The notes under the pieces are model-generated. The model saw nothing but the letters and a program-made list of their open reading frames with translations. It had not been told where the DNA came from and did not search any database. Of a DNA stretch of 29,452 nt, positions 1,896 to 23,330 are shown piece after piece (within the stretch, counting starts at the first letter, position 1; the number at the start of each line of letters is the position of its first letter). Where the stretch lies: positions 1-29,452 of IMG/VR virus record IMGVR_UViG_3300020308_000006. One strand, written 5' to 3'. The translations under genes were made by a program, and so were the position numbers. Source of the DNA: a virus (lineage: Duplodnaviria > Caudoviricetes).

Positions 1896-2290
1896 TGCCA
1901 CGTAAAGGCAAGGGATCTAAAACCCAAGCTATTCAAACAGCCAAAGATCAAACGTACGGGTCTGCTAAACAACAAGAAATGGCACAAGAAGTTGCGCCAC
2001 TTCCACAAAATGTAGCAGGTATGGGAGAACCAACAGCGTTGCCTCCTAGCAGAGTAATGCCCGGTAGCGCAGGTGATTTGTTTAGAACTACAGATCGTCC
2101 AATGGAACCTTCGTCAGCTATGCCATCGCAAATAAGAGAACCAAAACTTACTCCTGAACGTTCTCAATTGTTGTTCCAAACTATGCCGTTACTGCAAGCA
2201 ACAGCAAATAATCCTTACGCTAACCCAGACATGCAACAAACTGTTTTGCAAATGGAAACGTTTTTACCAACACGATTTGATGCGTCGTGA
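1895..2290 (+). CDS. Hypothetical protein (131 aa), basic N-terminus, Pro/Gln/Met-rich; possibly virion-associated
   Basis: TAATG overlap with the portal stop and GTGA overlap with the next gene; N-terminus MPRKGKGSK. Confidence 0.7.
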   Translation: MPRKGKGSKTQAIQTAKDQTYGSAKQQEMAQEVAPLPQNVAGMGEPTALPPSRVMPGSAGDLFRTTDRPMEPSSAMPSQIREPKLTPERSQLLFQTMPLLQATANNPYANPDMQQTVLQMETFLPTRFDAS

Positions 2291-5200
2291 GTTTTACCGG
2301 TCGGCTTTACAACATTTTTAGAGCGCCTGTTGATTTTGGTGCGCAAGCTGCTGATCTTTTTGTTGACACTATTCGACTAGCTGACGATGAAGAATTCAGT
2401 GTTTTCGAAGCGTTTAACGAATCGTGGAAAGACAACATACTAGGAAAAATGAGCGCATCTAATCAAGGTGTCGCTGGGCGTTCAGTAATAGGTTCTTTCT
2501 TTGGCCCGGATACTGGTATTGGTGCAGCAGTCGGGGCAATCCCTGAAAGTATAAGAGAAGAACCAGCCGCTGTTTGGAACCTAACAATGGACGGTTTCAA
2601 TTACGCAATTAAAAACTTTGTTGACCGGCCTATCGGCACAATGGTCACAATGGCAAGCCTTAACCCGTTTGAGGCTAGAGACCCTGTAACTGGTATGCGT
2701 ACAGGTCGTGGGTTTAACACCAAAATTTTTGATTATGGCACATGGCAAAATGCTTGGGAACTAACAAACGACAGAAGCGCTGGTCAAGCAATCATGCTGT
2801 TTTCTGGTCATGTAGATATTTTAAATCCAACTTCTGTAGAAGAATTTAAACAAACACCTAAGTACCAGTTTGTTTCCGGCATTTTTGATGCTGGCATTAA
2901 CGTTGTTGGAGACCCAGCTTATGCGGGCATTAAAATTAGCAGAACTGCATTTAATATTAATAGAGCTAAAAAAGCTCGTCTTGATCCAGACAATGTAGGT
3001 AAAGATTTATTTCCTGAAAAACAACTTGAATATATAGATATTGATGGGTCAGGTAACCCAGTTCCTGTTTACAGAGTTCAACCCGGGTTATTGCCAAATG
3101 AAAGCATGGGGCCTTTTTACGAACAAGTACGTCCACCTGTAAGAAATCAACCAATTATTGTTCGCACACCTACAAGAGAACCAATTCGTATTGGTGGACA
3201 AAAACTGCATGAAAAAATTCAACAGTTTGAAGGGAAGTATCCTTACCTTGAAACGTTGTTAGGCGGCAGTGTTTTAGACATGCTTACTATTGGCGGTGGC
3301 AAAGTCGTAGGCAGCACACGCTCTGTTGATTCTTTGTTGTTTGAAAAATTTGATTACCAACCTGCGTGGATGGACAATATCCCAGAACCACGAGATATTT
3401 TTGATGCAGCAACAGTGCCTATCACTAAAGAGTTGCAGCAAATTGTTATTAATGAAACAAATAACTTAGCTCTTTATGGCATAAGACCTTCTGCAACCTA
3501 TTTGCAAACAGGTGATCTCGGAGCAGCCCCACAGTTTGGACCTGATTTAAACAATGGAGGCTTAGTCCCTGCAATAGAAATTGCTAGTCGCAGCAATGTT
3601 CTTGGCGAAACAAGTCCAATATTTGACACTGATGCTTCGATAACAGAATTTCTCGAAAGAGAAGGTGCTGCTGATCCTAGTGATCCTTTCCCAGTTTCTT
3701 TAGCTGAAGGCGATGTCACCCCGGTTACAGACGAAGTACGTGTTAACTATCAAGCATACAAAGCTGCGTATGACACTTACGACTTAGACGTTTTAGCTCT
3801 ATTAAATCGTGACGAAATTGTTAATGAAGTAACTGCTGGGTTAAGAGGATACGGCGTCAATCTTGATTTTAATTTTAAAGATGATGTTTACCGTCAAGCA
3901 AAACGTGACTTTGAAGCAGCGATATATAGAAACGAACTTCCTTACGATACAAACGTTGATTTTAATGTTGAAGCTGCTATAGCCCGAATTAATGGTGAAT
4001 TAGTAGAAGCAGCAGATGCGTACAAACGACAATTTGACAACGAAATATATAGGCCTGACAACGTAGATACAGACCCTGAAGAGTTCCGAAGAGCCGAAGC
4101 AGAATTAGAATTAGCAGAAGATGGTTTATACGCTATTGCTGAACAACGGTTGCAATTAGAACTTTATGCAGCACATATTGATACTGTTTTTGGGCCATTA
4201 GAAAAAGTTAAAAACAGTCTTCAAACAATGAAGAAAGTTCCAAGCACAGGCTTAGATCAGTTTTACGGCACTGGGCTTTGGAATATAAATAGAAACAACG
4301 CTGCCCAAGAAATTATAGCTTTACGTATTTTTCAAAAAATGCCACAGTGGGGTCCAGCGTTTAAACATATGACGCCTGAAGAACGATGGCAATTGTCAAA
4401 AGTTTATGCAACATTAGCTAACGCTGCACCTGTAGATAGTTCTGCTTGGTTGCCGTTCCACAACTTTATTCGTTATGTAAATGGCAACGTTGCTGTAAAA
4501 GAAGCAATGCACGCACAGTTAAAAGAAATGTCGCATCTTTGGAGTTTGTTGCGACGTGTGCCGGGCCCAATAAAAGATCAATACAACAGATTCCCTGACG
4601 AATTTGATTATGACTGGCGTACAAGTTTAGGAGAAATGGATGAAACGCCGGGGCCAATGGCTGAGTTCCCAGCAATACTTGAACGCCCTACATCTTTACA
4701 CTGGCATTTTTCAGAACTAGGTCGTGTAAGAAAAGAAATAGCGTCATTTGATGCTCACAGAAAAAACATGGGACAAGCAATGGGGGAGATGGCCGCAGAT
4801 GATGCGTTCCAGCAAGGACGTGCAGCGTCTCTTGAACCTACTGCGATTCCTGACGAAATAAATCGTTTAGACAAAATTCACGTTGACCACATTATTGATG
4901 TGTTGCTTCAAAAAGAAAAAGCGCACGCTATTTTTATACAGCATTACTTGTTTAGCCCACAAGCTTTAGAAGATATGAGTATCCAAGCAGCGCAATTAGA
5001 ATTGCGAGAAGCATTAGATGCAACTGGCGTTTTAGATGAAGCTATGTACGCAGATGTTGCACCTGAAGATTTAGCTGGAGCTTCAGAAGCGTTACTTGAC
5101 TACGAACAACGGCGTCGTTCTTGGGACGATCCAACAAAAGAAGGCATTGAAAAGTTTAGGACAATGCCTATTAAACCGTTGAACTTGGATGCAGCAGAAA

Positions 5201-8200
5201 TCATTTTAGGTCGATCAGGAGATTCAGAACTTGCTGAATTATTTGATCGTTTACACGAAATGCAAAATTTTCCGTGGCAAGCAGTGCTAGCTGATAACGA
5301 AGGTACTTACAAAAATTTAATGCAAGATGTGTATTCGTTACTTCCAGCGAATCACGATCTTTACAACCCTGAATTAATTGTTAGAGGGACTAGCGACATA
5401 CCTGCTGCTGGTGAATTAAATCCGTTAGTCGATCAACAAGAAAACATGAATCGGCTTCGGAACCATGAAATTATTTCTCCACGGGAAATGCATGAAGCAG
5501 CGATAGATAATCTTTTTCAAACTATTGATTTAGAAATTCCTAGAACAATTGATGGGTTTGATTCAATTCTTAAACCTACGACCAAAGCAGGTCTTGCAGC
5601 ACGAACCTTTTTTGAAAAATCTGGTTTATACGCTGGGTTTACAAATTCACGTGCTTACAAACTGTTTAGTGAAAAAGTTTTAGAAGGCATTATTGATGTC
5701 AATAATAAAAACCAAGTAGTTACAGAACTAGAAAAGTTCTTCCGTGATTTAGAAAGAATTAACGTTTCTAAAATAATGCAAAAGCATCATGGCAGAGCAA
5801 CCATGTTAGAAAGCGGTGAACCACTTTCGTTGCTTGACGTAGCGTTAATGAGTTATCGTTCTAATCTTCCAACATGGGAAGGCATAAGTTTAGATAATCG
5901 ACCAACAGATAAAGGCACGTCGCAACTTTGGGCGGACCAAACGTTGATTGATTTAGTTGATACACCGCCTGAACGGTTAGGTCCTAAACTTGACAGGTTA
6001 ATTAACGGCGTACTTACTGGGTTTGTTGAATCAATAGTTCCTGACAAAAAATTTGACGGGCTCACTTGGACAGGACCAGACGTTCGTTCTAATTTGATAA
6101 CTATTCTTCGAGGCGAACTTTCAGCAGTTAAAAAAATGCTTGAAGAAAGCGCCGACGCTACAGGTAAAAAATACGGCAACGTTGATTTCACAGACGTTAT
6201 TGGGACCAACGAGTTAGGCGAAACTGTTTTTGTTCGCAAACCTATTGCTCCTAGTCAAGTTAGACAAACAGTAATTATGCCACGTATAGATAGGTGGAAA
6301 GATTTAGAACGAGCGTTAATGGGTGATTTCAAATCTATAGAAATTGCCGGGAAACAAATGCAAATAGGTCTTACTCCTGCTCGTGCTACTTTGCGTAACC
6401 TTTTAATGGAAACTCAAAGTACGTGGAAAACAATTAACTTGCTTACACCACGTTGGCAAATGGTTGTAAATATTGATTCGCAACTTCGTTTACAAGCAGC
6501 GCTTGAAACATCATTAGGGGTAGCAAGAATTGGGCCTGCATTTAATACTTTGCAAGCTAGGTGGCTACGCAATGACGGTGTAGACATTCAAGCTATTGTT
6601 CAAAACGAATTGTTTGAAGAACTAGGCGGGTTTGAGCGAATCACCGAAACTCAAAATTCAATGGCTGACATTCAAAGCGAACCTGATCTTCTCGAATTTG
6701 ATCAAGCTGAATATTTTGACAACGTTAAACGCCCTTCGTACGCACGTTTGTTAGAAGAAGAAGCAATTCTTCAACGGCGTAACTTTATTGAAATGGTTGA
6801 CCTTTATTTAGACGATGGTCAAGACATTGTAGAATTTGTAACTGGTGTAATAGAAAAAGAATACGCACGACGGCAAACTAAACGACTTGGCACAGCTACA
6901 GCACTAGGTCTTTATTTTACTGGTCCTGTTGGAGCAGCCGCAGCAGCAGGTGCTTACACTGCTCATAGCCGTACAAGCATAGCTAACGCTGCTCGACGAA
7001 TGGTTGCTGAATCATACGGTATTGCCGCACGTAACGCTGCTTGGGTTTCTTTAAGAGAAGCTGAAGCTGCTGACATGTTTAATTGGTTGGCAGAAAACTA
7101 TCCGGGTCGTTACCAAACAATTAGCGATGACTTATTCGGAGTAGAATCTTTAGATCAACTTATGGAAGAGCCTCAACGCTTTTTCCCTGCCGATAACTTT
7201 TTAGGTACAGCTAACACAACTGAATCTAAAATGTATGCTGCGTTGCTAGCAGAAAAAAATGTATTAGAAGGCGACGATGTAGCCAGTTATATCAATGACC
7301 GTATTTATGAAGAGGTTATTGACCCTTACACAGATGCAGCAAACTTAGGAACTTACACTGCTGTTATACCTGTAAGCCAAATTACAACCGCTGATTTTTA
7401 TAGGAATGCATCAGCAGGCACTCGCAAAATTATTGATGCTCGCATAAACGAATTAAAACGTACTTTAAGTGCACGTGAACAAACTGATATTTTGCGTAGA
7501 TCACAAGAAGGTATTCCTGATTATGCTTTAGAAGGAATCGAAAATTTAGAAGATTTCCTTGGAGACGCTGATCCTATTCTTGCAGAATTAGCGAACATAG
7601 TAAATACGCCAGAGCTAGTACAAAATTTTGAAGTAATAGGAATTGAAAATTTCTATAGTCGTCCGTTAGATGAATTCCCATTTGGTGGTTTAGATGTTCC
7701 ACCAGCAAGTCAAGTTGATTTCTTATCTTCCGAAAAAGCTACTGATTTAATTGGTGAACATTTTACGCTTTTAGATTTAGCAGCAGAAGCTAATCAAGCT
7801 TTTAAAGACCGCAGACGAGCAGCAGAGTTAATTTCTAACAACGTTGAAGCTGTATCTGATTACGATAAAACAGTTGTACAAGGTTTCCAGACAGAGTTTC
7901 CTCACACAGCACAAACGTTTGAACGTGCTGCACAAATTTTAACTGAAGGTGGATTTAGTACAACGCAAATAGGTTCAACTCGGATTGATAGTGCGTTTGG
8001 CAATATACCTTCACAGCAAGAAATTAATCGACGCAATATTTCTGCGAACAACACCGCCCGTATTCAAATACAAGGCGCTAACCATATTCAACGTAGAAAA
8101 GAAAAATTCCAAGGATCTCACCAATACGACTTTATGAATCGTGTTGAACGAGACAGCTTTGTAGCTGCTTACAATGATTTTGCTGACCGTATTTTGTCTG

Positions 8201-10887
8201 CCAAAGGACCAGAAGGTGTAACTGCTGATCGTGATTTTTGGCGGCAATTTATTCGTACACCAAACGCAAATCTTACTGATGCAGAAATTCTGCAATGGTT
8301 ACGCACCGACGGTAGACAAGTAATAGAAAATTGGGTACCTAGAGATCAAACACCAGAAGAGTTAACTAACTTAGTGTTTAAAGCTCGTTACGAATCAATG
8401 AGCCAAGTACCAGCTATTTTGCCGGGGTTTGAAGCTGTTGTTGAAAAATTTCAAGCAGGCACAACAATCACGTGGCAAGCTGACATTGTTCCTGCTTTAG
8501 ATAAACTACAAAAGTTAAGTGATTCTACTTGGGATCAAATTTTAAAAGCGTTTATAGACGACAACGAATTACGTCAAATAGGAGTATCTAGTGGTATCCC
8601 AGCTTTTGACGAAATAACTGGTGTACCTCTATGGGATTCTGCGTTAACAATGTGGGATTCTTTTCGAGATGGCAAAGTATTACGTTGGATTGATGCCACT
8701 GGAAATCTTGACATTGATTTAACGGTAGACCCTGTTCTTCGACGTTTAATGATTGCTTCTTACGAAAGCGCTGCTGAATCTATAATTACGAATACCGGGC
8801 AGTTATCGTTTGACCAAAGAATGACAGCAATGACTGTCGCTAAACGTCGTGACATTGTTGAACAGATTCGTTTATTAGGTGAACGCAATATCAAGTTTGT
8901 AGAAGAAGTTGAAGACGTTGCGTTTCTCAGGTCAGCTTCGCCAGCGTCTATTAAAAACAGTCGCCCGTTACCGGGCGAAGAAGGCTTACGTGATTTTGGA
9001 AGAACTGTAACTGATTCTCAGTTCTTAGATTCAAAACAAACTGCGACTATTTGGGAACGCATAAAACAAAAAATAACTCAACCACTAGAAAACTTAGGCG
9101 AAGTTGAAAGCAGTATGTCACGAGGCGTAATGTACGATGCGCTTTATACAGCAGATGTTATTCGTCGTTTACAACCTTTTAAAGTAGGTGACGCATACCA
9201 CATTTCAGATAAACGTATGTATCAGTTACAAGAAAAAGCACGCAAATGGGCTCGGGTTGAAACAAATAATCAACTTTACGATTTAGCGTCACGTACACGA
9301 ATTGAAGAAATGCTTTGGCTTGTTGCACCTTTCTTTGGCGCATGGCAAGAAGTTCTTGGACGATGGTTTAGTTTGGCGTACGAAAATCCTGTGTTCGTAG
9401 CACGAGGGTTACGACCTTTTGCGCTTCTATCTGGTGAAGACGAAAACGGTCAATCAATTGCAACTTTCCAATTACCAAACATAATCGGTGCAAAAACTGA
9501 AACAGATTGGATTCCGTTTGTCGAATCAGTGGATTGGTTTGGCGATTTAAGCATTCTTTCTGAAATGCCAATGGACTTAAAACTAGGGTCTGGTTCATTT
9601 ATCGCTGCGTTACCGGGAGTGAGCCCTGCTATTACTGTTGGCGCTGGAGAAGCAATCCTTGCGGTACCGTCGTTAGATAAAACTTTAGGGTGGTTAATTC
9701 CTTACGGAATAGCTGAAGGCGACAACACATTTACACGCATATTGTCAAGTTTGTTGCCAGCGTGGACTAAAAATATTGCTCGCAAAGGTTTACTTAACAA
9801 GCTTTATTTAGATGATGACCGTCGCAAAGCTACTGCTGCACGAGTTTTGATTGACATGATGGTTCAATACAACGAGCAAGGCATTGTGCTTCCGACAACT
9901 GGGCAAGCGTTAAAAGATTTTAATGCTGAAGCAAAACGTCGTACTGAAATGATTTATGGCATACGGTCATTGCGTAACTTGGCAGTACCAACGTCAGCGT
10001 TGCAACAGTCGCCTTATTATCCAGTTATTAAAGAGTACTGGAAAGTTCTTGAAGAACATGGGCCAGAAATAGCTGATGCGTACATACTAGAAAATCATTT
10101 TGATATGTGGCCGGCTACTGCCCGTACTCAACTTACGATAGAAGCAATTGCAGGCACACGCCAAGGTCACGAAAATTATGAACTGCATAAACAAGACGCA
10201 ACAGAGTACCAAGAAATAGCTTCGTGGATTATTGGGCAGGTTGGGCCAGAAGAAGTTAAATGGGAATACAACCGGAATATTCGTCGCCTTGAAACTCTTG
10301 AAGGACGTGTAAGACCTTTAACTTTAGGCGAACAATTTGAAGATGCGACTGCTACACAAGGTTGGCGAGAGTGGAAAGATTTCCGTATAAAACTTTATGC
10401 TGATTTAGCGCAACGTAAAAAAGCTGGTTTGTCTGGAGCTATTTCTTCTCATTACGATTTAGTACAAAAACGGCGATCTTTTATTCATAATCTTGGTCAA
10501 CAATTCCCAGCGTGGCATGAAGAGTTTTACAGCACTAATGATCCTTTAAAGGTGCAAAGAACTTTAGCTGGGTTCCGTCATGTTGTTAAAGATCCTGCAT
10601 ATGCAAAACGACTTGATGTTGTGCAAATAGGACAATTTTTAGATTTGCATGATGGTATTGCTAGAGATTTAGAAATGCGTGCTAAAAGTTTTAATAGTTC
10701 TAGATGGGAACGCCTTAGTTATAAAGGCAATGAAGATTTGCGAGTTAGATGGGAACTAGGTATCGCAAAATTATTGTTGCAACCAGACTTTGGAAATGTC
10801 TATGACAGGTTCTTTAGTAATATAGAAACAGTTTCTGTTGGAAATAGCCCGTTGCGTGAACCAGCAACACTTGGGAGCGCAAGATAA
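2287..10887 (+). CDS. Very large putative internal virion / DNA ejection protein (2866 aa)
   Basis: Uninterrupted 8.6-kb ORF in the structural operon; acidic and helical; hydrophobic Gly/Ala segment near aa 1535-1557; no tape-measure-like repeats or recognisable polymerase motifs. Function inferred from size and synteny. Confidence 0.65.
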   Translation: MSFTGRLYNIFRAPVDFGAQAADLFVDTIRLADDEEFSVFEAFNESWKDNILGKMSASNQGVAGRSVIGSFFGPDTGIGAAVGAIPESIREEPAAVWNLTMDGFNYAIKNFVDRPIGTMVTMASLNPFEARDPVTGMRTGRGFNTKIFDYGTWQNAWELTNDRSAGQAIMLFSGHVDILNPTSVEEFKQTPKYQFVSGIFDAGINVVGDPAYAGIKISRTAFNINRAKKARLDPDNVGKDLFPEKQLEYIDIDGSGNPVPVYRVQPGLLPNESMGPFYEQVRPPVRNQPIIVRTPTREPIRIGGQKLHEKIQQFEGKYPYLETLLGGSVLDMLTIGGGKVVGSTRSVDSLLFEKFDYQPAWMDNIPEPRDIFDAATVPITKELQQIVINETNNLALYGIRPSATYLQTGDLGAAPQFGPDLNNGGLVPAIEIASRSNVLGETSPIFDTDASITEFLEREGAADPSDPFPVSLAEGDVTPVTDEVRVNYQAYKAAYDTYDLDVLALLNRDEIVNEVTAGLRGYGVNLDFNFKDDVYRQAKRDFEAAIYRNELPYDTNVDFNVEAAIARINGELVEAADAYKRQFDNEIYRPDNVDTDPEEFRRAEAELELAEDGLYAIAEQRLQLELYAAHIDTVFGPLEKVKNSLQTMKKVPSTGLDQFYGTGLWNINRNNAAQEIIALRIFQKMPQWGPAFKHMTPEERWQLSKVYATLANAAPVDSSAWLPFHNFIRYVNGNVAVKEAMHAQLKEMSHLWSLLRRVPGPIKDQYNRFPDEFDYDWRTSLGEMDETPGPMAEFPAILERPTSLHWHFSELGRVRKEIASFDAHRKNMGQAMGEMAADDAFQQGRAASLEPTAIPDEINRLDKIHVDHIIDVLLQKEKAHAIFIQHYLFSPQALEDMSIQAAQLELREALDATGVLDEAMYADVAPEDLAGASEALLDYEQRRRSWDDPTKEGIEKFRTMPIKPLNLDAAEIILGRSGDSELAELFDRLHEMQNFPWQAVLADNEGTYKNLMQDVYSLLPANHDLYNPELIVRGTSDIPAAGELNPLVDQQENMNRLRNHEIISPREMHEAAIDNLFQTIDLEIPRTIDGFDSILKPTTKAGLAARTFFEKSGLYAGFTNSRAYKLFSEKVLEGIIDVNNKNQVVTELEKFFRDLERINVSKIMQKHHGRATMLESGEPLSLLDVALMSYRSNLPTWEGISLDNRPTDKGTSQLWADQTLIDLVDTPPERLGPKLDRLINGVLTGFVESIVPDKKFDGLTWTGPDVRSNLITILRGELSAVKKMLEESADATGKKYGNVDFTDVIGTNELGETVFVRKPIAPSQVRQTVIMPRIDRWKDLERALMGDFKSIEIAGKQMQIGLTPARATLRNLLMETQSTWKTINLLTPRWQMVVNIDSQLRLQAALETSLGVARIGPAFNTLQARWLRNDGVDIQAIVQNELFEELGGFERITETQNSMADIQSEPDLLEFDQAEYFDNVKRPSYARLLEEEAILQRRNFIEMVDLYLDDGQDIVEFVTGVIEKEYARRQTKRLGTATALGLYFTGPVGAAAAAGAYTAHSRTSIANAARRMVAESYGIAARNAAWVSLREAEAADMFNWLAENYPGRYQTISDDLFGVESLDQLMEEPQRFFPADNFLGTANTTESKMYAALLAEKNVLEGDDVASYINDRIYEEVIDPYTDAANLGTYTAVIPVSQITTADFYRNASAGTRKIIDARINELKRTLSAREQTDILRRSQEGIPDYALEGIENLEDFLGDADPILAELANIVNTPELVQNFEVIGIENFYSRPLDEFPFGGLDVPPASQVDFLSSEKATDLIGEHFTLLDLAAEANQAFKDRRRAAELISNNVEAVSDYDKTVVQGFQTEFPHTAQTFERAAQILTEGGFSTTQIGSTRIDSAFGNIPSQQEINRRNISANNTARIQIQGANHIQRRKEKFQGSHQYDFMNRVERDSFVAAYNDFADRILSAKGPEGVTADRDFWRQFIRTPNANLTDAEILQWLRTDGRQVIENWVPRDQTPEELTNLVFKARYESMSQVPAILPGFEAVVEKFQAGTTITWQADIVPALDKLQKLSDSTWDQILKAFIDDNELRQIGVSSGIPAFDEITGVPLWDSALTMWDSFRDGKVLRWIDATGNLDIDLTVDPVLRRLMIASYESAAESIITNTGQLSFDQRMTAMTVAKRRDIVEQIRLLGERNIKFVEEVEDVAFLRSASPASIKNSRPLPGEEGLRDFGRTVTDSQFLDSKQTATIWERIKQKITQPLENLGEVESSMSRGVMYDALYTADVIRRLQPFKVGDAYHISDKRMYQLQEKARKWARVETNNQLYDLASRTRIEEMLWLVAPFFGAWQEVLGRWFSLAYENPVFVARGLRPFALLSGEDENGQSIATFQLPNIIGAKTETDWIPFVESVDWFGDLSILSEMPMDLKLGSGSFIAALPGVSPAITVGAGEAILAVPSLDKTLGWLIPYGIAEGDNTFTRILSSLLPAWTKNIARKGLLNKLYLDDDRRKATAARVLIDMMVQYNEQGIVLPTTGQALKDFNAEAKRRTEMIYGIRSLRNLAVPTSALQQSPYYPVIKEYWKVLEEHGPEIADAYILENHFDMWPATARTQLTIEAIAGTRQGHENYELHKQDATEYQEIASWIIGQVGPEEVKWEYNRNIRRLETLEGRVRPLTLGEQFEDATATQGWREWKDFRIKLYADLAQRKKAGLSGAISSHYDLVQKRRSFIHNLGQQFPAWHEEFYSTNDPLKVQRTLAGFRHVVKDPAYAKRLDVVQIGQFLDLHDGIARDLEMRAKSFNSSRWERLSYKGNEDLRVRWELGIAKLLLQPDFGNVYDRFFSNIETVSVGNSPLREPATLGSAR

Positions 10888-15130: not shown

Positions 15131-16087
15131 ATGGCAACCCCCTCAGTAACAACTTCAACTCTGGACGATCAGGTACAGGCTGCGTTCGATCAGGTTGCGT
15201 ATTTCGCTTTGCGTTCGCAACCATTGTTCGAAATGGTCGCTGACGTTCGTTCGACAGCACAGAGCCACAACGGTTCTAGTGTTAAATTTACTTTCCTAGC
15301 CGATCTTGGGCAGGCCACTACAGCGCTTACGGAAAACGCTGATGTGACAGCACAGGCATTGACTGACAGCCAAATAAACGTAGCTCTTGCAGAGTACGGT
15401 AATGCGGTTATCACCAGTGCCAAGCTGCGTGGAACATCATTCCTTAACGTAGACGCTGATGCAGCCAACATTGTTGGTTACAACATGGCTGACTCAATGG
15501 ATAAAATTGTGTCTGATGTTGCCAATGGCAGCACCGACGCCAATCAAATTATCCATTCGGGCCAAACAAGCCGTGGCGCAATCACAGCTACTGATAACTA
15601 CACTGCTGCGTTAGGCAGGCAAGCCGTAGCTAAGTTGCGGACTGCTAACGCTCCCGGTTGGGAAAACGGCAACTATATGGCAATTATTCACCCTGATGTT
15701 TCTTACGATCTTCGTGGAGATACAGCGGTGACTGACGTTGTTAACTACCAGTTGTACCAAGAAGGAGGCCCAATTCGTGCAGGTTCGATTGGTACTTTCA
15801 ATGGCATCGAATACATTGAGAACCCACGTGCCGGTTTAATCGCCGACGGTGGTTCCGGTAACGTCGATGTTTACCAAACCCTTATCTGTGGCCGTCAAGC
15901 GCTTGCAAAAGCGCATTCACGTGCCCCCGGATTTGGCGCTGACCCAAGCATTGTTGTTGGTCCTGTGACTGACACCCTGCGTCGGTTCAATCCAATTGGC
16001 TGGTACCACCTAGTCGGATACGGCATCTTCCGTGAAGCATGCATGGTCCGTGTGGAAGCAGCATCAACAATCGGAGCTAACTCCTAG
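15131..16087 (+). CDS. Major capsid protein (HK97 fold, N4-gp56-like family), 318 aa
   Basis: Motifs LAEYGNAV, IIHPDVSYDLR, GSIGTFNGIEYIE, DTLRRFNPIGWY; more C-ending codons than neighbours, as expected for high expression; double TAG TAG stop. Confidence 0.9.
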   Translation: MATPSVTTSTLDDQVQAAFDQVAYFALRSQPLFEMVADVRSTAQSHNGSSVKFTFLADLGQATTALTENADVTAQALTDSQINVALAEYGNAVITSAKLRGTSFLNVDADAANIVGYNMADSMDKIVSDVANGSTDANQIIHSGQTSRGAITATDNYTAALGRQAVAKLRTANAPGWENGNYMAIIHPDVSYDLRGDTAVTDVVNYQLYQEGGPIRAGSIGTFNGIEYIENPRAGLIADGGSGNVDVYQTLICGRQALAKAHSRAPGFGADPSIVVGPVTDTLRRFNPIGWYHLVGYGIFREACMVRVEAASTIGANS

Positions 16088-16105
16088 TAGTTAGTTTTAG
16101 AGATC

Positions 16106-16146
16106 GCAGAGGGGTCGGGTTTTCCCCCTTTCCCCGGCCTCTCTGC
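16106..16146 (+). terminator. 14-bp hairpin after the capsid gene with a pyrimidine (anti-SD-like) loop; probable terminator or 3' stabiliser
   Basis: GCAGAGGGGTCGGG / CCCGGCCTCTCTGC (two G-U pairs that form on the + strand); loop TTTTCCCCCTTTC; followed by TCTTCTCT rather than a clean U-tract. Confidence 0.7.
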
Positions 16147-16153
16147 TCTTCTC

Positions 16154-16162
16154 TGCTATCAT
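16154..16162 (+). promoter_or_regulatory. Extended -10 element positioned for a leaderless transcript
   Basis: TGcTATCAT ends 7 nt before the ATG at 16170; no SD upstream of that ATG. Confidence 0.55.
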
Positions 16163-16169
16163 TTCAATC

Positions 16170-16271
16170 ATGCCTACAGTTAACGGAAAAAAGTACGCCT
16201 ATACCGCTAAAGGTAAAAAGGCTGCTGCTGCTGCAAGAAAGAAAAAAAAGAATGCAAAAACCAAGCGGTGA
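16170..16271 (+). CDS. Small highly basic protein (33 aa)
   Basis: MPTVNGKKYAYTAKGKKAAAAARKKKKNAKTKR*; below the ORF-track cut-off; resembles the MPxVxGKKxxYTxKG basic peptides often seen near capsid genes of aquatic phages. Confidence 0.75.
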   Translation: MPTVNGKKYAYTAKGKKAAAAARKKKKNAKTKR

Positions 16272-16323
16272 CGTAACGATTAGGCCAAAGCCAATCCAAG
16301 GAACGAGTAGCACCAATGGCTAG
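16252..16323 (+). CDS. Micro-ORF (23 aa) resembling one repeat unit of the 352-aa structural protein
   Basis: MQKPSGDVTIRPKPIQGTSSTNG*; bridges the gap between the 33-aa and 154-aa genes, overlapping both (ATGGCTAG 8-nt overlap downstream). Confidence 0.45.
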   Translation: MQKPSGDVTIRPKPIQGTSSTNG

Positions 16324-16780
16324 TGGACTTTTTTGCGAAACGTTTGAGGCCGCATTAAAAAATGACCTCAATTTAGATTTCGATAATGACACGTTTAAAT
16401 GTTTGTTGACAACTGCGTCATTTAATCCGACTGCTTCGGATTATGAAACTATGTCAACAATGAACGATATAACTAACGAGTTACCAGCAGGTGGTAATTA
16501 CTCAACTGGTGGCGAAACGTTGACCAGTGTTACGTTTACTAGTTCTTCGGATGGCACAGGAACATTAAAGTTTGATGCTGCCGATACTGAATGGGCTGCT
16601 TCAACGTTGTCTGGTGTAGCAAGAGCAGTTGTTTACGATGACACGCTTTACGCCAGCACAGGCACAAACAAATGTCTTATTGCTTGCATAGATTTTGGGG
16701 GAGCTTTTAGTACAACGTCCGGCACATTCAAAATCCAATGGAATACTGCCGGTATTTTCACTCTTGATCTGGTTCCATAG
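16316..16780 (+). CDS. Beta-rich virion structural protein (154 aa), fibre-associated family
   Basis: Pattern DxDNDTFKxxL..NE..GxNYxxGG.TL..FDAAD..W..AVVY..LIAxIDFG..GTFxIQWNxxGIF is a widespread phage structural family found beside fibre genes. Confidence 0.65.
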   Translation: MASGLFCETFEAALKNDLNLDFDNDTFKCLLTTASFNPTASDYETMSTMNDITNELPAGGNYSTGGETLTSVTFTSSSDGTGTLKFDAADTEWAASTLSGVARAVVYDDTLYASTGTNKCLIACIDFGGAFSTTSGTFKIQWNTAGIFTLDLVP

Positions 16781-17461: not shown

Positions 17462-18076
17462 ATGCCTCTAGGCGCATTTAAAACAGCTTTGTTGGGTGCT
17501 GCCGGAAGCGGCGGCGGCGGCAAGGGTTGGGAAACTCTTGGCACCGCTGATTATGGTGGTCAAACGAGTGTCAATTTTACGGGTATTGACCCAACTAAGT
17601 ATTCGATATTGCGTGTAGTTTTTTGGGAACCGGGAAATACTTCCGCTGGCGGAGCCAACCCAATAATGCAAGTCCAGCCGATAAACACCAATAATTATCG
17701 TAATAACTGGGGGTATGAGAACGTAAAAAATGGTTCTCGGTATGTGTACGATGATCGTGAAACAACTTACGCAGAAATGTGGCGGGCAATCGGTGCTGGT
17801 GATTCTTCCAACGTAGGATATGGACAAAGTTTTGTTGCGTATTTTACGACTGGGCCAAGAGATTCTCAAACTAGTCGCCAAGTTTGGCGTTCTATGCACA
17901 ACTGGTGGGGAAACGGCAACAACCCAGCTATAGACAATGCTTGGGGAGGTAACTCCTCATATAATTATGGTACTCCCAACACTGAAGGTACCACTAACCT
18001 TTATTTCACTGTAACTAGTAGCTGGAGTCGTCCGACTAACGCAGTTATTAGTCTTTACGGATTGGCTCAACCATAA
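17462..18076 (+). CDS. Putative receptor-binding tip protein, paralog 1 (204 aa)
   Basis: MPLGAFK leader plus Gly linker, then a SVNFTGI..YSILRV ... ISLYG beta-domain shared with the next two genes; Asn/Trp/Tyr-rich. Confidence 0.55.
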   Translation: MPLGAFKTALLGAAGSGGGGKGWETLGTADYGGQTSVNFTGIDPTKYSILRVVFWEPGNTSAGGANPIMQVQPINTNNYRNNWGYENVKNGSRYVYDDRETTYAEMWRAIGAGDSSNVGYGQSFVAYFTTGPRDSQTSRQVWRSMHNWWGNGNNPAIDNAWGGNSSYNYGTPNTEGTTNLYFTVTSSWSRPTNAVISLYGLAQP

Positions 18077-18633
18077 TGGAAGCTGTAGCCCAAATCGTTG
18101 TTGACGATACTACAACAGGTTCTGTTTCGTTTACCAGTCTGCCTCAAACTTATTCGTCTTTGCATATTGAGGGTATGGCTGCATCGACTAATACTGGCAC
18201 GGACGTTGAGTTTTATGCGACGTTTAATAACATAACAACAGCGTCTTATGATTATCAGTTCCGTCGGGTTACAAGAACTAATGGTTCACATACCGACTAT
18301 TACACATGGAATAGCAGTTCATCCAGTCCTTTGCTTGCTCGGATACCCGGTACTCAAAGTGGGGCAGCAGGGGCTTCCAATGTTATGGCGTTAATGCAAA
18401 TGAATTTAACTCAATACCGTTCTACTGATAATGGATCACCAATGATCGAAGTACGGGCATGGACTACTGTGGACTCCAGCGGTGGTATTACCAGATGGTT
18501 TGAAAACAGTATGGGCATGACGACCATAGATACCGGTATGAACTCGACAGCTATCACTACGTTGACATTGTCAACAGTAAGTTATTTTAAAGAAGGTTCG
18601 GTGTTTACATTGTATGGAAGACCAGATTCCTAA
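18076..18633 (+). CDS. Putative receptor-binding tip protein, paralog 2 (185 aa)
   Basis: SVSFTSLPQTYSSLHI ... TAITTLTL..FKEGSVFTLYG; TAATG-coupled. Confidence 0.55.
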   Translation: MEAVAQIVVDDTTTGSVSFTSLPQTYSSLHIEGMAASTNTGTDVEFYATFNNITTASYDYQFRRVTRTNGSHTDYYTWNSSSSSPLLARIPGTQSGAAGASNVMALMQMNLTQYRSTDNGSPMIEVRAWTTVDSSGGITRWFENSMGMTTIDTGMNSTAITTLTLSTVSYFKEGSVFTLYGRPDS

Positions 18634-19187
18634 TGGCTAACGAACTTCTTGGAATTGCAAAAGCCGACGGTAGCGCTATTACTTTAACTGTTTCTAGTAT
18701 CCCTCAAACGCACAAAGATTTAGAAATCTTTTTTACAGGAACTATAAATTATACCGGTAGCACTTTTTATACCGATGATTTCTATGTGAACACTGTGGAT
18801 ACTAACGCTAATTATGATATCCAGCGGATTGCTTGGTATAACGCAGGGGGCTCTTACACGAATAATGCTGTTGCCTCAGGTCACGGTTATAGCAACGCAG
18901 CAAATTATTGTCCATCTATGGGGATTACTGATACCGGGCAAGGTGGAGGAAACGGTAATTGGATGACAGTTTATTTACCTGAATACACTGATACTTCTGG
19001 TTATCAACAAATACTTTATGAGTGTGGCGGAATAAAAAATTCTAATGCTTGGGCAGCAAGCTGGGGAACTGCTTACAAATATGGTGAAACTGCTGCTACA
19101 ACAAGTGTTTCTGTAAAGAACTCTGGTAATCATATTTATCAAGCAGGCAGTTCTTTGCTTGTTTATGGAATAGATAGGACTGTATAA
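18633..19187 (+). CDS. Putative receptor-binding tip protein, paralog 3 (184 aa)
   Basis: TLTVSSIPQTHKDLEI ... AATTSVSV..YQAGSSLLVYG; TAATG-coupled. Confidence 0.55.
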   Translation: MANELLGIAKADGSAITLTVSSIPQTHKDLEIFFTGTINYTGSTFYTDDFYVNTVDTNANYDIQRIAWYNAGGSYTNNAVASGHGYSNAANYCPSMGITDTGQGGGNGNWMTVYLPEYTDTSGYQQILYECGGIKNSNAWAASWGTAYKYGETAATTSVSVKNSGNHIYQAGSSLLVYGIDRTV

Positions 19188-22271: not shown

Positions 22272-23330
22272 GTGCCGTCCCCTGCTGTCAATCCGTACAA
22301 CAAAGATGAGATTGAATACCAAGAGCCGGGGTTCGACTACGCCCCAAAATATCCGGGCACTTACGACTATAACGAAAGTGGCATTCAATATAGAGAAGCC
22401 AACTTTCCTTACCAGAAACGTGATGCAACTGTATTTGCTAGCACGGTTGCGTGTTCAGCAGATTTAGCGCCTACGTTTGTATACGTTTATACACCTAAAC
22501 GTCCGGGCGGCGTAGCGTATAGGTCAGGTTATGACTACAACAAGACCGGGTTCGATTACAACGAACGTGACACCTCGGTATCCGACAACCGTGTCTTGGT
22601 GGATTACAGCCAGTCGGGTGTTAGTTATTCTCAGTCTGCCGATGTTGGTCATACTGTGGCGGCGATTGCGACGCCACCCACAATCGGTGTTACGACGACG
22701 TTTTCGGCAAGCCCGTCGGTCCCGGCAACGGTTACTCTTGGATCAGCAATTGAGTGTCCAGTTGTAATTATTCCGGGGGTTGAAGCACAAACAATTGTTG
22801 TTGATGGTGGCACTACAGTACCAGCAGCTATACCTGATGTTACTTCTGAAGCGATCGTTCTTCCCGACGAAGTTGCGGCAGCAGCTACTGTTGGTGATAC
22901 TGTCACTCTTTACATTACGGTTGACGCTGCACAAGATGACTCGCTTGAAAGAACTGCGACAATACCAGCAGTTACACCAAGCAGTAATTACACAGCATTG
23001 CCAGACGCTATCGCTGCTACAAGTTCAATATCTGTTGTCACTATGTACCAGTTAGTTGTAATACCTACTGAAAATATTGTGCCTTCTGTTGGTCGAAGAG
23101 AAGACGCTTCACCTGCTGCGTATGCTTTAATGCGTCACTATAGTCCCGGCGCTAGAGGAGATAATATATTTATTATCAATGGGACTACTGTTCAAAGTTA
23201 TTTACCTGCTGATTGGGGCACAGTCACACGGTGGATATACGGCGGACACGAAAGCCCAAAAGATTTAACAACAGAAGAAGAATCCGTTTTACTTGCAGCG
23301 GGTTATTCATTCAGAGTAGGACCAGAATAA
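22272..23330 (+). CDS. Virion structural protein with Tyr-periodic motifs and ~21-aa beta-strand repeats (352 aa)
   Basis: GTG start with GAGG SD; Y-x6-Y-x6-Y motifs in aa 9-119; imperfect repeats in aa 131-257; C-terminal YGGH..T.EE..L.AAGY domain. Confidence 0.6.
   Translation: MPSPAVNPYNKDEIEYQEPGFDYAPKYPGTYDYNESGIQYREANFPYQKRDATVFASTVACSADLAPTFVYVYTPKRPGGVAYRSGYDYNKTGFDYNERDTSVSDNRVLVDYSQSGVSYSQSADVGHTVAAIATPPTIGVTTTFSASPSVPATVTLGSAIECPVVIIPGVEAQTIVVDGGTTVPAAIPDVTSEAIVLPDEVAAAATVGDTVTLYITVDAAQDDSLERTATIPAVTPSSNYTALPDAIAATSSISVVTMYQLVVIPTENIVPSVGRREDASPAAYALMRHYSPGARGDNIFIINGTTVQSYLPADWGTVTRWIYGGHESPKDLTTEEESVLLAAGYSFRVGPE

Follow-up and report, generated by a model that had tools for sequence, protein, structure and literature searches.

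A conserved phage micro-gene encodes a peptide resembling a rope-type strand and may supply a temporary partner for a probable chain-like fibre subunit

Results

Organisation of the locus

The window, i.e., the whole stretch of 29,452 nt analysed here, covers a tailed-phage structural region with a major capsid protein (15131..16087, plus strand), an amidase endolysin and many unnamed ORFs. The capsid gene is followed by a 33-aa Lys-rich ORF conserved in close relatives (16170..16271, +), a 23-aa ORF (16252..16323, +) and a 154-aa gene (16316..16780, +), each overlapping the next. The unannotated ORF that the original prediction had placed across the start of the 154-aa gene is present: it begins within the Lys-rich ORF, its stop lies 8 nt into the 154-aa gene (ATGGCTAG), and its product, with the core D-V-T-I-R-P-K-P-I-Q-G-T, resembles a rope-type strand in a single free copy. 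The 8-nt overlap was not counted as evidence, because the M-A-S start of the 154-aa protein forces it. A 352-aa protein with a Tyr-rich N-terminus, strand repeats and a C-terminal part matching phrog_23524 is encoded 5.9 kb downstream (22272..23330, +). The 154-aa protein is hereafter termed the bead and the 352-aa protein, its likely partner, the rope; Pfam gave no match for peptide, bead or rope.

Other features of the region were recorded alongside. The stretch that separates the capsid gene from the Lys-rich ORF holds a GC-rich inverted repeat (about 16100-16155), which is similar in close relatives and may be a terminator or a processing hairpin. A short Lys-rich ORF also precedes the small companion gene of CRP-901/902 described below (L312:1894-2028), and such an ORF lies directly before the bead gene in most loci that have no companion. 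Elsewhere in the window, a 2,866-aa ORF with no Pfam match (2287-10887) probably encodes an internal virion protein, three consecutive ORFs of 184-204 aa and similar make-up (17462-19187) have no match in Pfam or PHROG, and the ORFs at 17462 and 19419 share nearly identical first 13 residues.

Conservation and coding signal of the micro-gene

For the relatives of the 154-aa protein, 84 loci were fetched; the truncated L039 and L073 were dropped, giving 83 loci including the window, many of them close relatives of one another. A conserved overlapping micro-ORF had been anticipated upstream of the bead homologues, and the core motif was found in the same frame, ending at the bead start, in 73 of the 83. 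Among the ten motif misses, L072 and L054 (contig end) carry the peptide on inspection and L009 encodes a longer variant; at the other seven (L078-L084) no peptide core adjoins the bead gene, and in five of these a rope homologue is present. The peptide is kept where the neighbouring protein falls to 49-55% identity, with an acidic version in L074 and L075, and between lineages the start codons change while the core stays.

The 23-aa ORF is a real protein-coding gene. Over 46 distinct cores its frame gave a pN/pS of 0.18 and no stops (0/46), as compared to 2.1 and 1.9, with stops in 46/46 and 30/46, for the other two plus frames of the same cores; choosing the cores by motif lowers pN somewhat, and all motif misses are individually accounted for. 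A sequence AAGGA stands 14 nt before the bead start and the exact 23-aa sequence is missing among the called genes of the protein collection searched, as might be expected if the conserved stretch were a ribosome-binding or RNA element serving the bead gene. Such a non-coding element is highly improbable in view of the pN/pS value and of the variation of the core, which falls mostly at third codon positions (entropy 1.4 vs. 0.33 and 0.33). A frameshift joining peptide and bead was ruled out, because the bases before the bead start differ between loci.

The bead and its predicted fold

The 154-aa protein matches phrog_644 (function unknown) and belongs to a family of 7,464 clusters at 50% identity (E up to 0.001), represented among cultured phages by MiniFlayer, phiCbK, CRP-901/902 and many actinophages. 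When the bead was searched by sequence against solved structures nothing matched, and its AlphaFold model had no Foldseek match at E up to 0.001; the best rows, at E 0.009 and 0.25, were Bxb1 gp31 and GP4 fibre I, respectively. Structural comparison with VIA placed a T4-like baseplate chain on top (9f4a_AY, Z 12.7) and aligned the bead with Bxb1 gp31 (Z 9.9, rmsd 2.2, 100 aligned) and with the GP4 fibre I chain 8jou_a (Z 8.8, rmsd 2.9, 119 aligned). At the sequence level the link to gp31 is weak (hhalign probability 0.6%), and PF23140 (GP4 gp80) was weakly matched by 4 of 79 bead homologues, with a best E of 0.003. Judged by its model, the 154-aa protein has a chain-like-fibre subunit fold and groups with proteins whose binding partner is an extended strand; support for its place among subunits that measure about 140-170 aa and adopt the fold of GP4 gp80 is structural and moderate. 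Phage tail and fibre proteins provide the best fold matches, and no pilin or usher-type chains are among the matches listed.

The bead likely acts as a dimer. Tandem two-domain bead proteins make up 23 of the best 147 new family representatives, which is what a dimeric bead would predict, and the 9D93 entry of the Bxb1 tail holds six gp31 chains per three gp30 chains, consistent with dimers. A trimeric bead, guessed from the neck fibre of phage A-1(L), was dropped given the dimers of solved chain-like fibres (PMC13730344).

The original prediction had regarded the 154-aa protein as an incomplete beta-sandwich in need of a donor strand; the model lends this no support as it stands, the monomer being predicted well folded on its own (pLDDT 93, pTM 0.89). 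The window bead and its close homologues begin directly at the conserved domain and have no N-terminal donor extension. Some bead homologues (P0163, P0180, P0262, and P0268) carry N-terminal leaders of 45-86 aa that end in P-[IVF]-A-G-G before the usual start, an ending present in 4 of 12 bead leaders, and ends of this type may be cleavage sites. The N-terminus of P0268 is a fused companion-like sequence, identical at 18 of 34 positions to the companion of locus L197 (E 3e-10), and the P0180 leader holds, by eye, a similar strand.

Several cultured phages offered further observations on the family. In phiCbK, a phage with a head filament (PMC12796354), gp75 is a bead homologue and gp72 resembles, by eye, a second small fibre subunit, both encoded directly after the capsid genes (L086, coordinates 3864-4256 and 6932-7348 for gp72 and gp75). 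ORF007 of KPP25 (L225:10168-10683; 171 aa) equals A1002 gp41 in length and has an N-terminal hairpin loosely resembling, by eye, the long companions. Upstream of its annotated start, the frame of Bxb1 gp31 (L143:5533-5934) stays open for another 27 codons, back to an ATT that follows an AGGAG, and this stretch resembles the N-terminus of the family; gp31 may be about 133 rather than 106 aa long.

The rope and its repeats

The 352-aa protein contains about 6-7 strand repeats by eye, of which four are strong by profile (22422..22469, score 23.7; 22659..22706, 19.8; 22848..22895, 15.9; 22986..23033, 20.0; all +). In this protein and its homologues the repeat takes the form V-T-V-T-P-A-x-I-A-A-T. 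With an iterated profile, 105 loci yielded repeat proteins, the spacing being mostly 20, 22 or 24 residues, and the tandem sites of about 20 aa expected of a rope are found in the 352-aa protein and its homologues. Cultured bead-carrying phages have lineage-specific repeat proteins nearby; in GMA1 the rope pattern matched no repeats. By analogy with solved fibres, we infer that the 154-aa bead and the 352-aa rope form a bead-on-rope fibre.

Part of P0121, a natural fusion of rope-like repeats and bead, was modelled by AlphaFold as one chain and discarded, the repeats being at pLDDT 45-64 and undocked; the model would be uninformative if two bead copies are required to form the site.

Likeness of the peptide to the rope repeats

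The peptide had been proposed to align in register with three repeats of the 352-aa protein. All three occur there, about 6.3-6.7 kb away from the micro-gene and in the proposed register, and the likeness of the peptide to them is real but modest. Against the repeat profile the window peptide scored 0.2 bits, where true repeats reach about 22, ranking sixth of 502 short ORFs (shuffle p 0.006), and on the five alternating positions alone it ranked third of 507. It retains the alternating V, I, P, I and G, with polar or charged residues between them: R, K, P and Q stand where the ropes have T and A, a substitution that would fit a soluble, weaker-binding peptide. Raw scores gave the window peptide no preference for its own rope (7/37), the preference being seen in shuffle-normalised scores only. 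The stronger support for its identity as a free repeat is the comparative evidence across lineages rather than the match of the window peptide alone.

Companions in other lineages

Four more lineages likewise have small companion genes, among them unannotated examples in the cultured phages CRP-901 and CRP-902. A second clade has, in 40 of 43 loci (25 in the model), a companion of 40-70 aa that ends in D-V-x-V-H-V-P-x-L-x-I and usually lies directly upstream of the bead. In 15/15 and 31/33 distinct registers, residues 9 and 11 match the rope of the own clade, being I plus a small residue in one clade and L plus a large one in the other, as counted with a neutral register.

In CRP-902, a rope pattern written beforehand led to an ORF absent from the annotation, at a distance of 6.9 kb from the bead gene, that ranked first of 125 short ORFs (12.7 vs. 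0.0), and its CRP-901 counterpart ranked first of 144. The companion core of this type has a pN/pS of 0.28. Across 82 CRP-type loci, 15 of 6,069 short ORFs scored at least 8, 12 of them companions, two fragments of ropes and one an antisense ORF; with enough flank, 10 of 23 loci had a scored companion match, and 12 when the motif search was included. The co-translation of peptide and bead that had been envisaged is not general, the two genes lying 6.9 kb apart in CRP-901/902.

The companion of L210 and its own rope both contain A-D-G-M-T-A, and MiniFlayer gp7 (68 aa; second of 286 short ORFs) shares P-M-x-G with gp8. The best shuffle-normalised score was obtained with the rope of the own lineage in 5/5 rows (z 3.3, 1.4, 5.3, 2.8, and 3.0), a matching that stands for five lineages rather than hundreds of independent cases; the preference is weak in the second clade (z 1.4), raw scores reveal none in the first two clades, and the MiniFlayer and L210 rows are partly circular because their rope patterns were written after the companions were known.

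Two genomic arrangements were noted besides. In L185 (969-1662) and L171 an ORF resembling, by eye, an HNH endonuclease separates companion and bead, and the companion is kept. In MiniFlayer (L085:5186-9997) a bead, the companion of 68 aa and a repeat protein of 1,376 aa are encoded consecutively as gp6-gp8, and this set is a candidate for the fibre with which the satellite grips the neck of its helper phage (PMC10690885).

A profile of the long companions fails to recover the 23-aa peptides (best E 23), so that common ancestry of the two is unproven and they may be separately derived; the long companions had no usable match in Atlas and PHROG. No companion was seen in Gibbles, Guey18, Onyinye and GodonK within the 8-25 kb fetched of each, nor by eye in GP4 within its fetched region of 8-25 kb. 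The companion is an accessory rather than an obligatory component.

These comparisons bear on whether the small protein has another job altogether, its repeat likeness being a generic pattern of beta-strand plus proline and its docking, described below, a modelling artefact. The weak absolute profile score of the window peptide fits that explanation, as does the Lys-rich ORF that precedes the companion in the window clade as well as in CRP-901/902; models, moreover, can set any strand in such a groove, and one control reached 0.37. Yet lineage-specific matches such as T-G-V in the CRP phages and A-D-G-M-T-A in L210 speak against it, a companion-like sequence occurs fused to a bead, and the link to the Lys-rich ORF is broken in both directions, the peptide occurring without it in L074 and L075 and the ORF occurring without the peptide. 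An unrelated job is in our judgement decidedly unlikely.

Predicted complex of bead dimer and peptide

Two copies of the bead folded together with the peptide, using alignments, gave a score of 0.85, the best of three controls reaching 0.37. Of solved complexes, 116 of 157 attained the mark, as did 2 of 215 mismatched pairs; these figures apply to the present job only roughly. Resemblance to solved chain-like fibres may lie behind the score, which is a measure of neither affinity nor exchange. The runs share at least 94% of contacts, with a partner pLDDT of at least 72. The modelled peptide chain included seven extra upstream in-frame residues, none of them in the reported interface, which spans peptide residues 5-23. 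The conserved V and I of the peptide contact bead residues 138-141, its P residues 140-142 and its later I residues 147-149; this contact stretch (138-149) includes invariant columns. Largely identical residues of both bead copies touch the peptide, which suggests a single site per dimer, located on its axis, and hence competition with the rope.

The expected docking of the peptide on the 154-aa protein is thereby predicted, the site being a groove that lies between two bead copies. It is probable that the peptide binds the groove of the rope.

Discussion

Chain-like fibres have been described in podophages, with gp40/gp41 dimers on the A1002 nozzle-rope protein gp39, gp80 dimers on a separate rope in GP4, and a similar fibre in VP1 (PMC13730344). 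In these fibres gp80-like proteins are arranged as dimers in series on the rope by beta-sheet augmentation, five of them in GP4 and 11 in A1002, where they occupy a rope segment consisting mainly of residues 243-468 (PMC13730344). The published segment corresponds arithmetically to about 20 aa per dimer, as compared to the spacing of mostly 20, 22 and 24 found here. The window phage resembles them, as known from sequence and models, in a small beta-rich subunit of gp80 fold and an extended partner with sites of about 20 aa. The bead-and-rope arrangement has precedents in solved phages, and the new element is the free single repeat: the window phage encodes a free single-site peptide, unlike A1002, GP4 and VP1 as far as their fibres are described in the available source. 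The main text of that source, in the portion available, mentions no such peptide, and the words "chaperone", "groove" and "repeat" do not appear in it (PMC13730344). The statement that no peptide of this kind has been described for phage fibres agrees with the literature covered, in which none was found and which leaves aside the primary Bxb1, GP4 and VP1 papers and supplements.

The bead also shares its fold with gp31 of the Bxb1 tail wing arm (PDB 9D93, Z 9.9; PMC12646305), but among Bxb1 gp26-gp34, unlike in the window phage, no rope-like repeats were seen by eye. The neck fibre of A-1(L) is likewise a beaded accessory fibre, modelled as trimers arranged head to tail with no rope (PMC10966104).

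The window phage thus finds its closest counterpart in the known chain-like fibres of GP4 and A1002, and not in the chaperone-usher pili with which the original prediction had drawn its parallel.

In chaperone-usher pili, a donor strand holds the groove until it is replaced by the strand of the final partner. The likeness consists in the proposal that a strand of one chain holds a groove until a final replacement. The differences are several: the groove is here predicted between two folded subunits, the final donor would be a separate repeat protein and the placeholder a bare peptide instead of a folded chaperone, and the candidate strand is encoded by separate genes, not by an N-terminal extension of the next subunit. 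Among the 29 ORFs of the window Pfam gave no chaperone or usher match.

Given an observed gene under selection, a repeat protein and lineage-matched companions, together with a predicted bead fold and peptide-dimer complex, the role that we favour, at a probability of about 0.5, is that of a temporary accessory placeholder, which occupies the groove of the bead dimer and is later displaced by the repeats of the 352-aa rope. The 23-aa peptide would fill the groove of newly made bead dimers and could keep them soluble and free from misloading; the rope, more hydrophobic and multivalent, would displace it on binding, and each bead dimer would finally hold one rope repeat in the groove previously shared with the peptide, as solved relatives suggest. 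A temporary role is supported indirectly by the companion-like leader of P0268, by the strand in P0180, by the P-[IVF]-A-G-G ends, and by A1002 gp41, which lacks its first approximately 30 residues, suggested to be cleaved (PMC13730344). The patchy presence of the companion and the folding of the bead alone in silico count against it.

The same predicted complex would also fit a permanent mini-rope or cap, with the peptide staying in the virion on bead dimers located off the rope, such as the end bead or beads on the capsid. The gene immediately follows that of the capsid protein in the window clade and sits within the head region of CRP-901/902, and MiniFlayer gp7, with its 68 aa, is big enough to anchor elsewhere. 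However, the 23-aa form has almost nothing beyond its groove-binding part, and outside the core the length and charge of the peptide vary freely, and we regard a permanent cap as unlikely. The peptide might otherwise work as a buffer or brake, taking up surplus bead dimers or limiting rope loading, the dimers so bound not being passed on. Competition, as implied by the single predicted site per dimer, would be in line with this, and a tuning factor could well be patchy in its presence and loosely linked; nonetheless, since the gene overlaps the bead start in the window clade, peptide and bead are probably made at about 1:1, by which a brake would block most beads unless exchange occurs, and we hold this role to be rather more unlikely.

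The placeholder reading may extend beyond the window clade. In its wider form, which we put forward a little more tentatively, several unrelated phage lineages encode a mostly unannotated, free rope-repeat micro-protein, which would act in trans as a donor-strand placeholder, i.e., a peptide-only chaperone that co-evolves with the rope, occurs also in fusion with the bead, as its N-terminal leader, and is exchanged at threading.

Chain-like fibres have been solved as finished structures only. A free single-site peptide offers a direct handle on how the dimers are loaded on the rope, and as an assembly chaperone it would be very small; the cultured phages CRP-901, CRP-902 and MiniFlayer make the placeholder idea testable. 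A small pair of dimer and peptide with lineage-specific codes could also find use as a tool for assembling proteins. With 7,464 clusters the bead family is large, and its companions, including those of CRP-901 and CRP-902, have often been missed by annotation.
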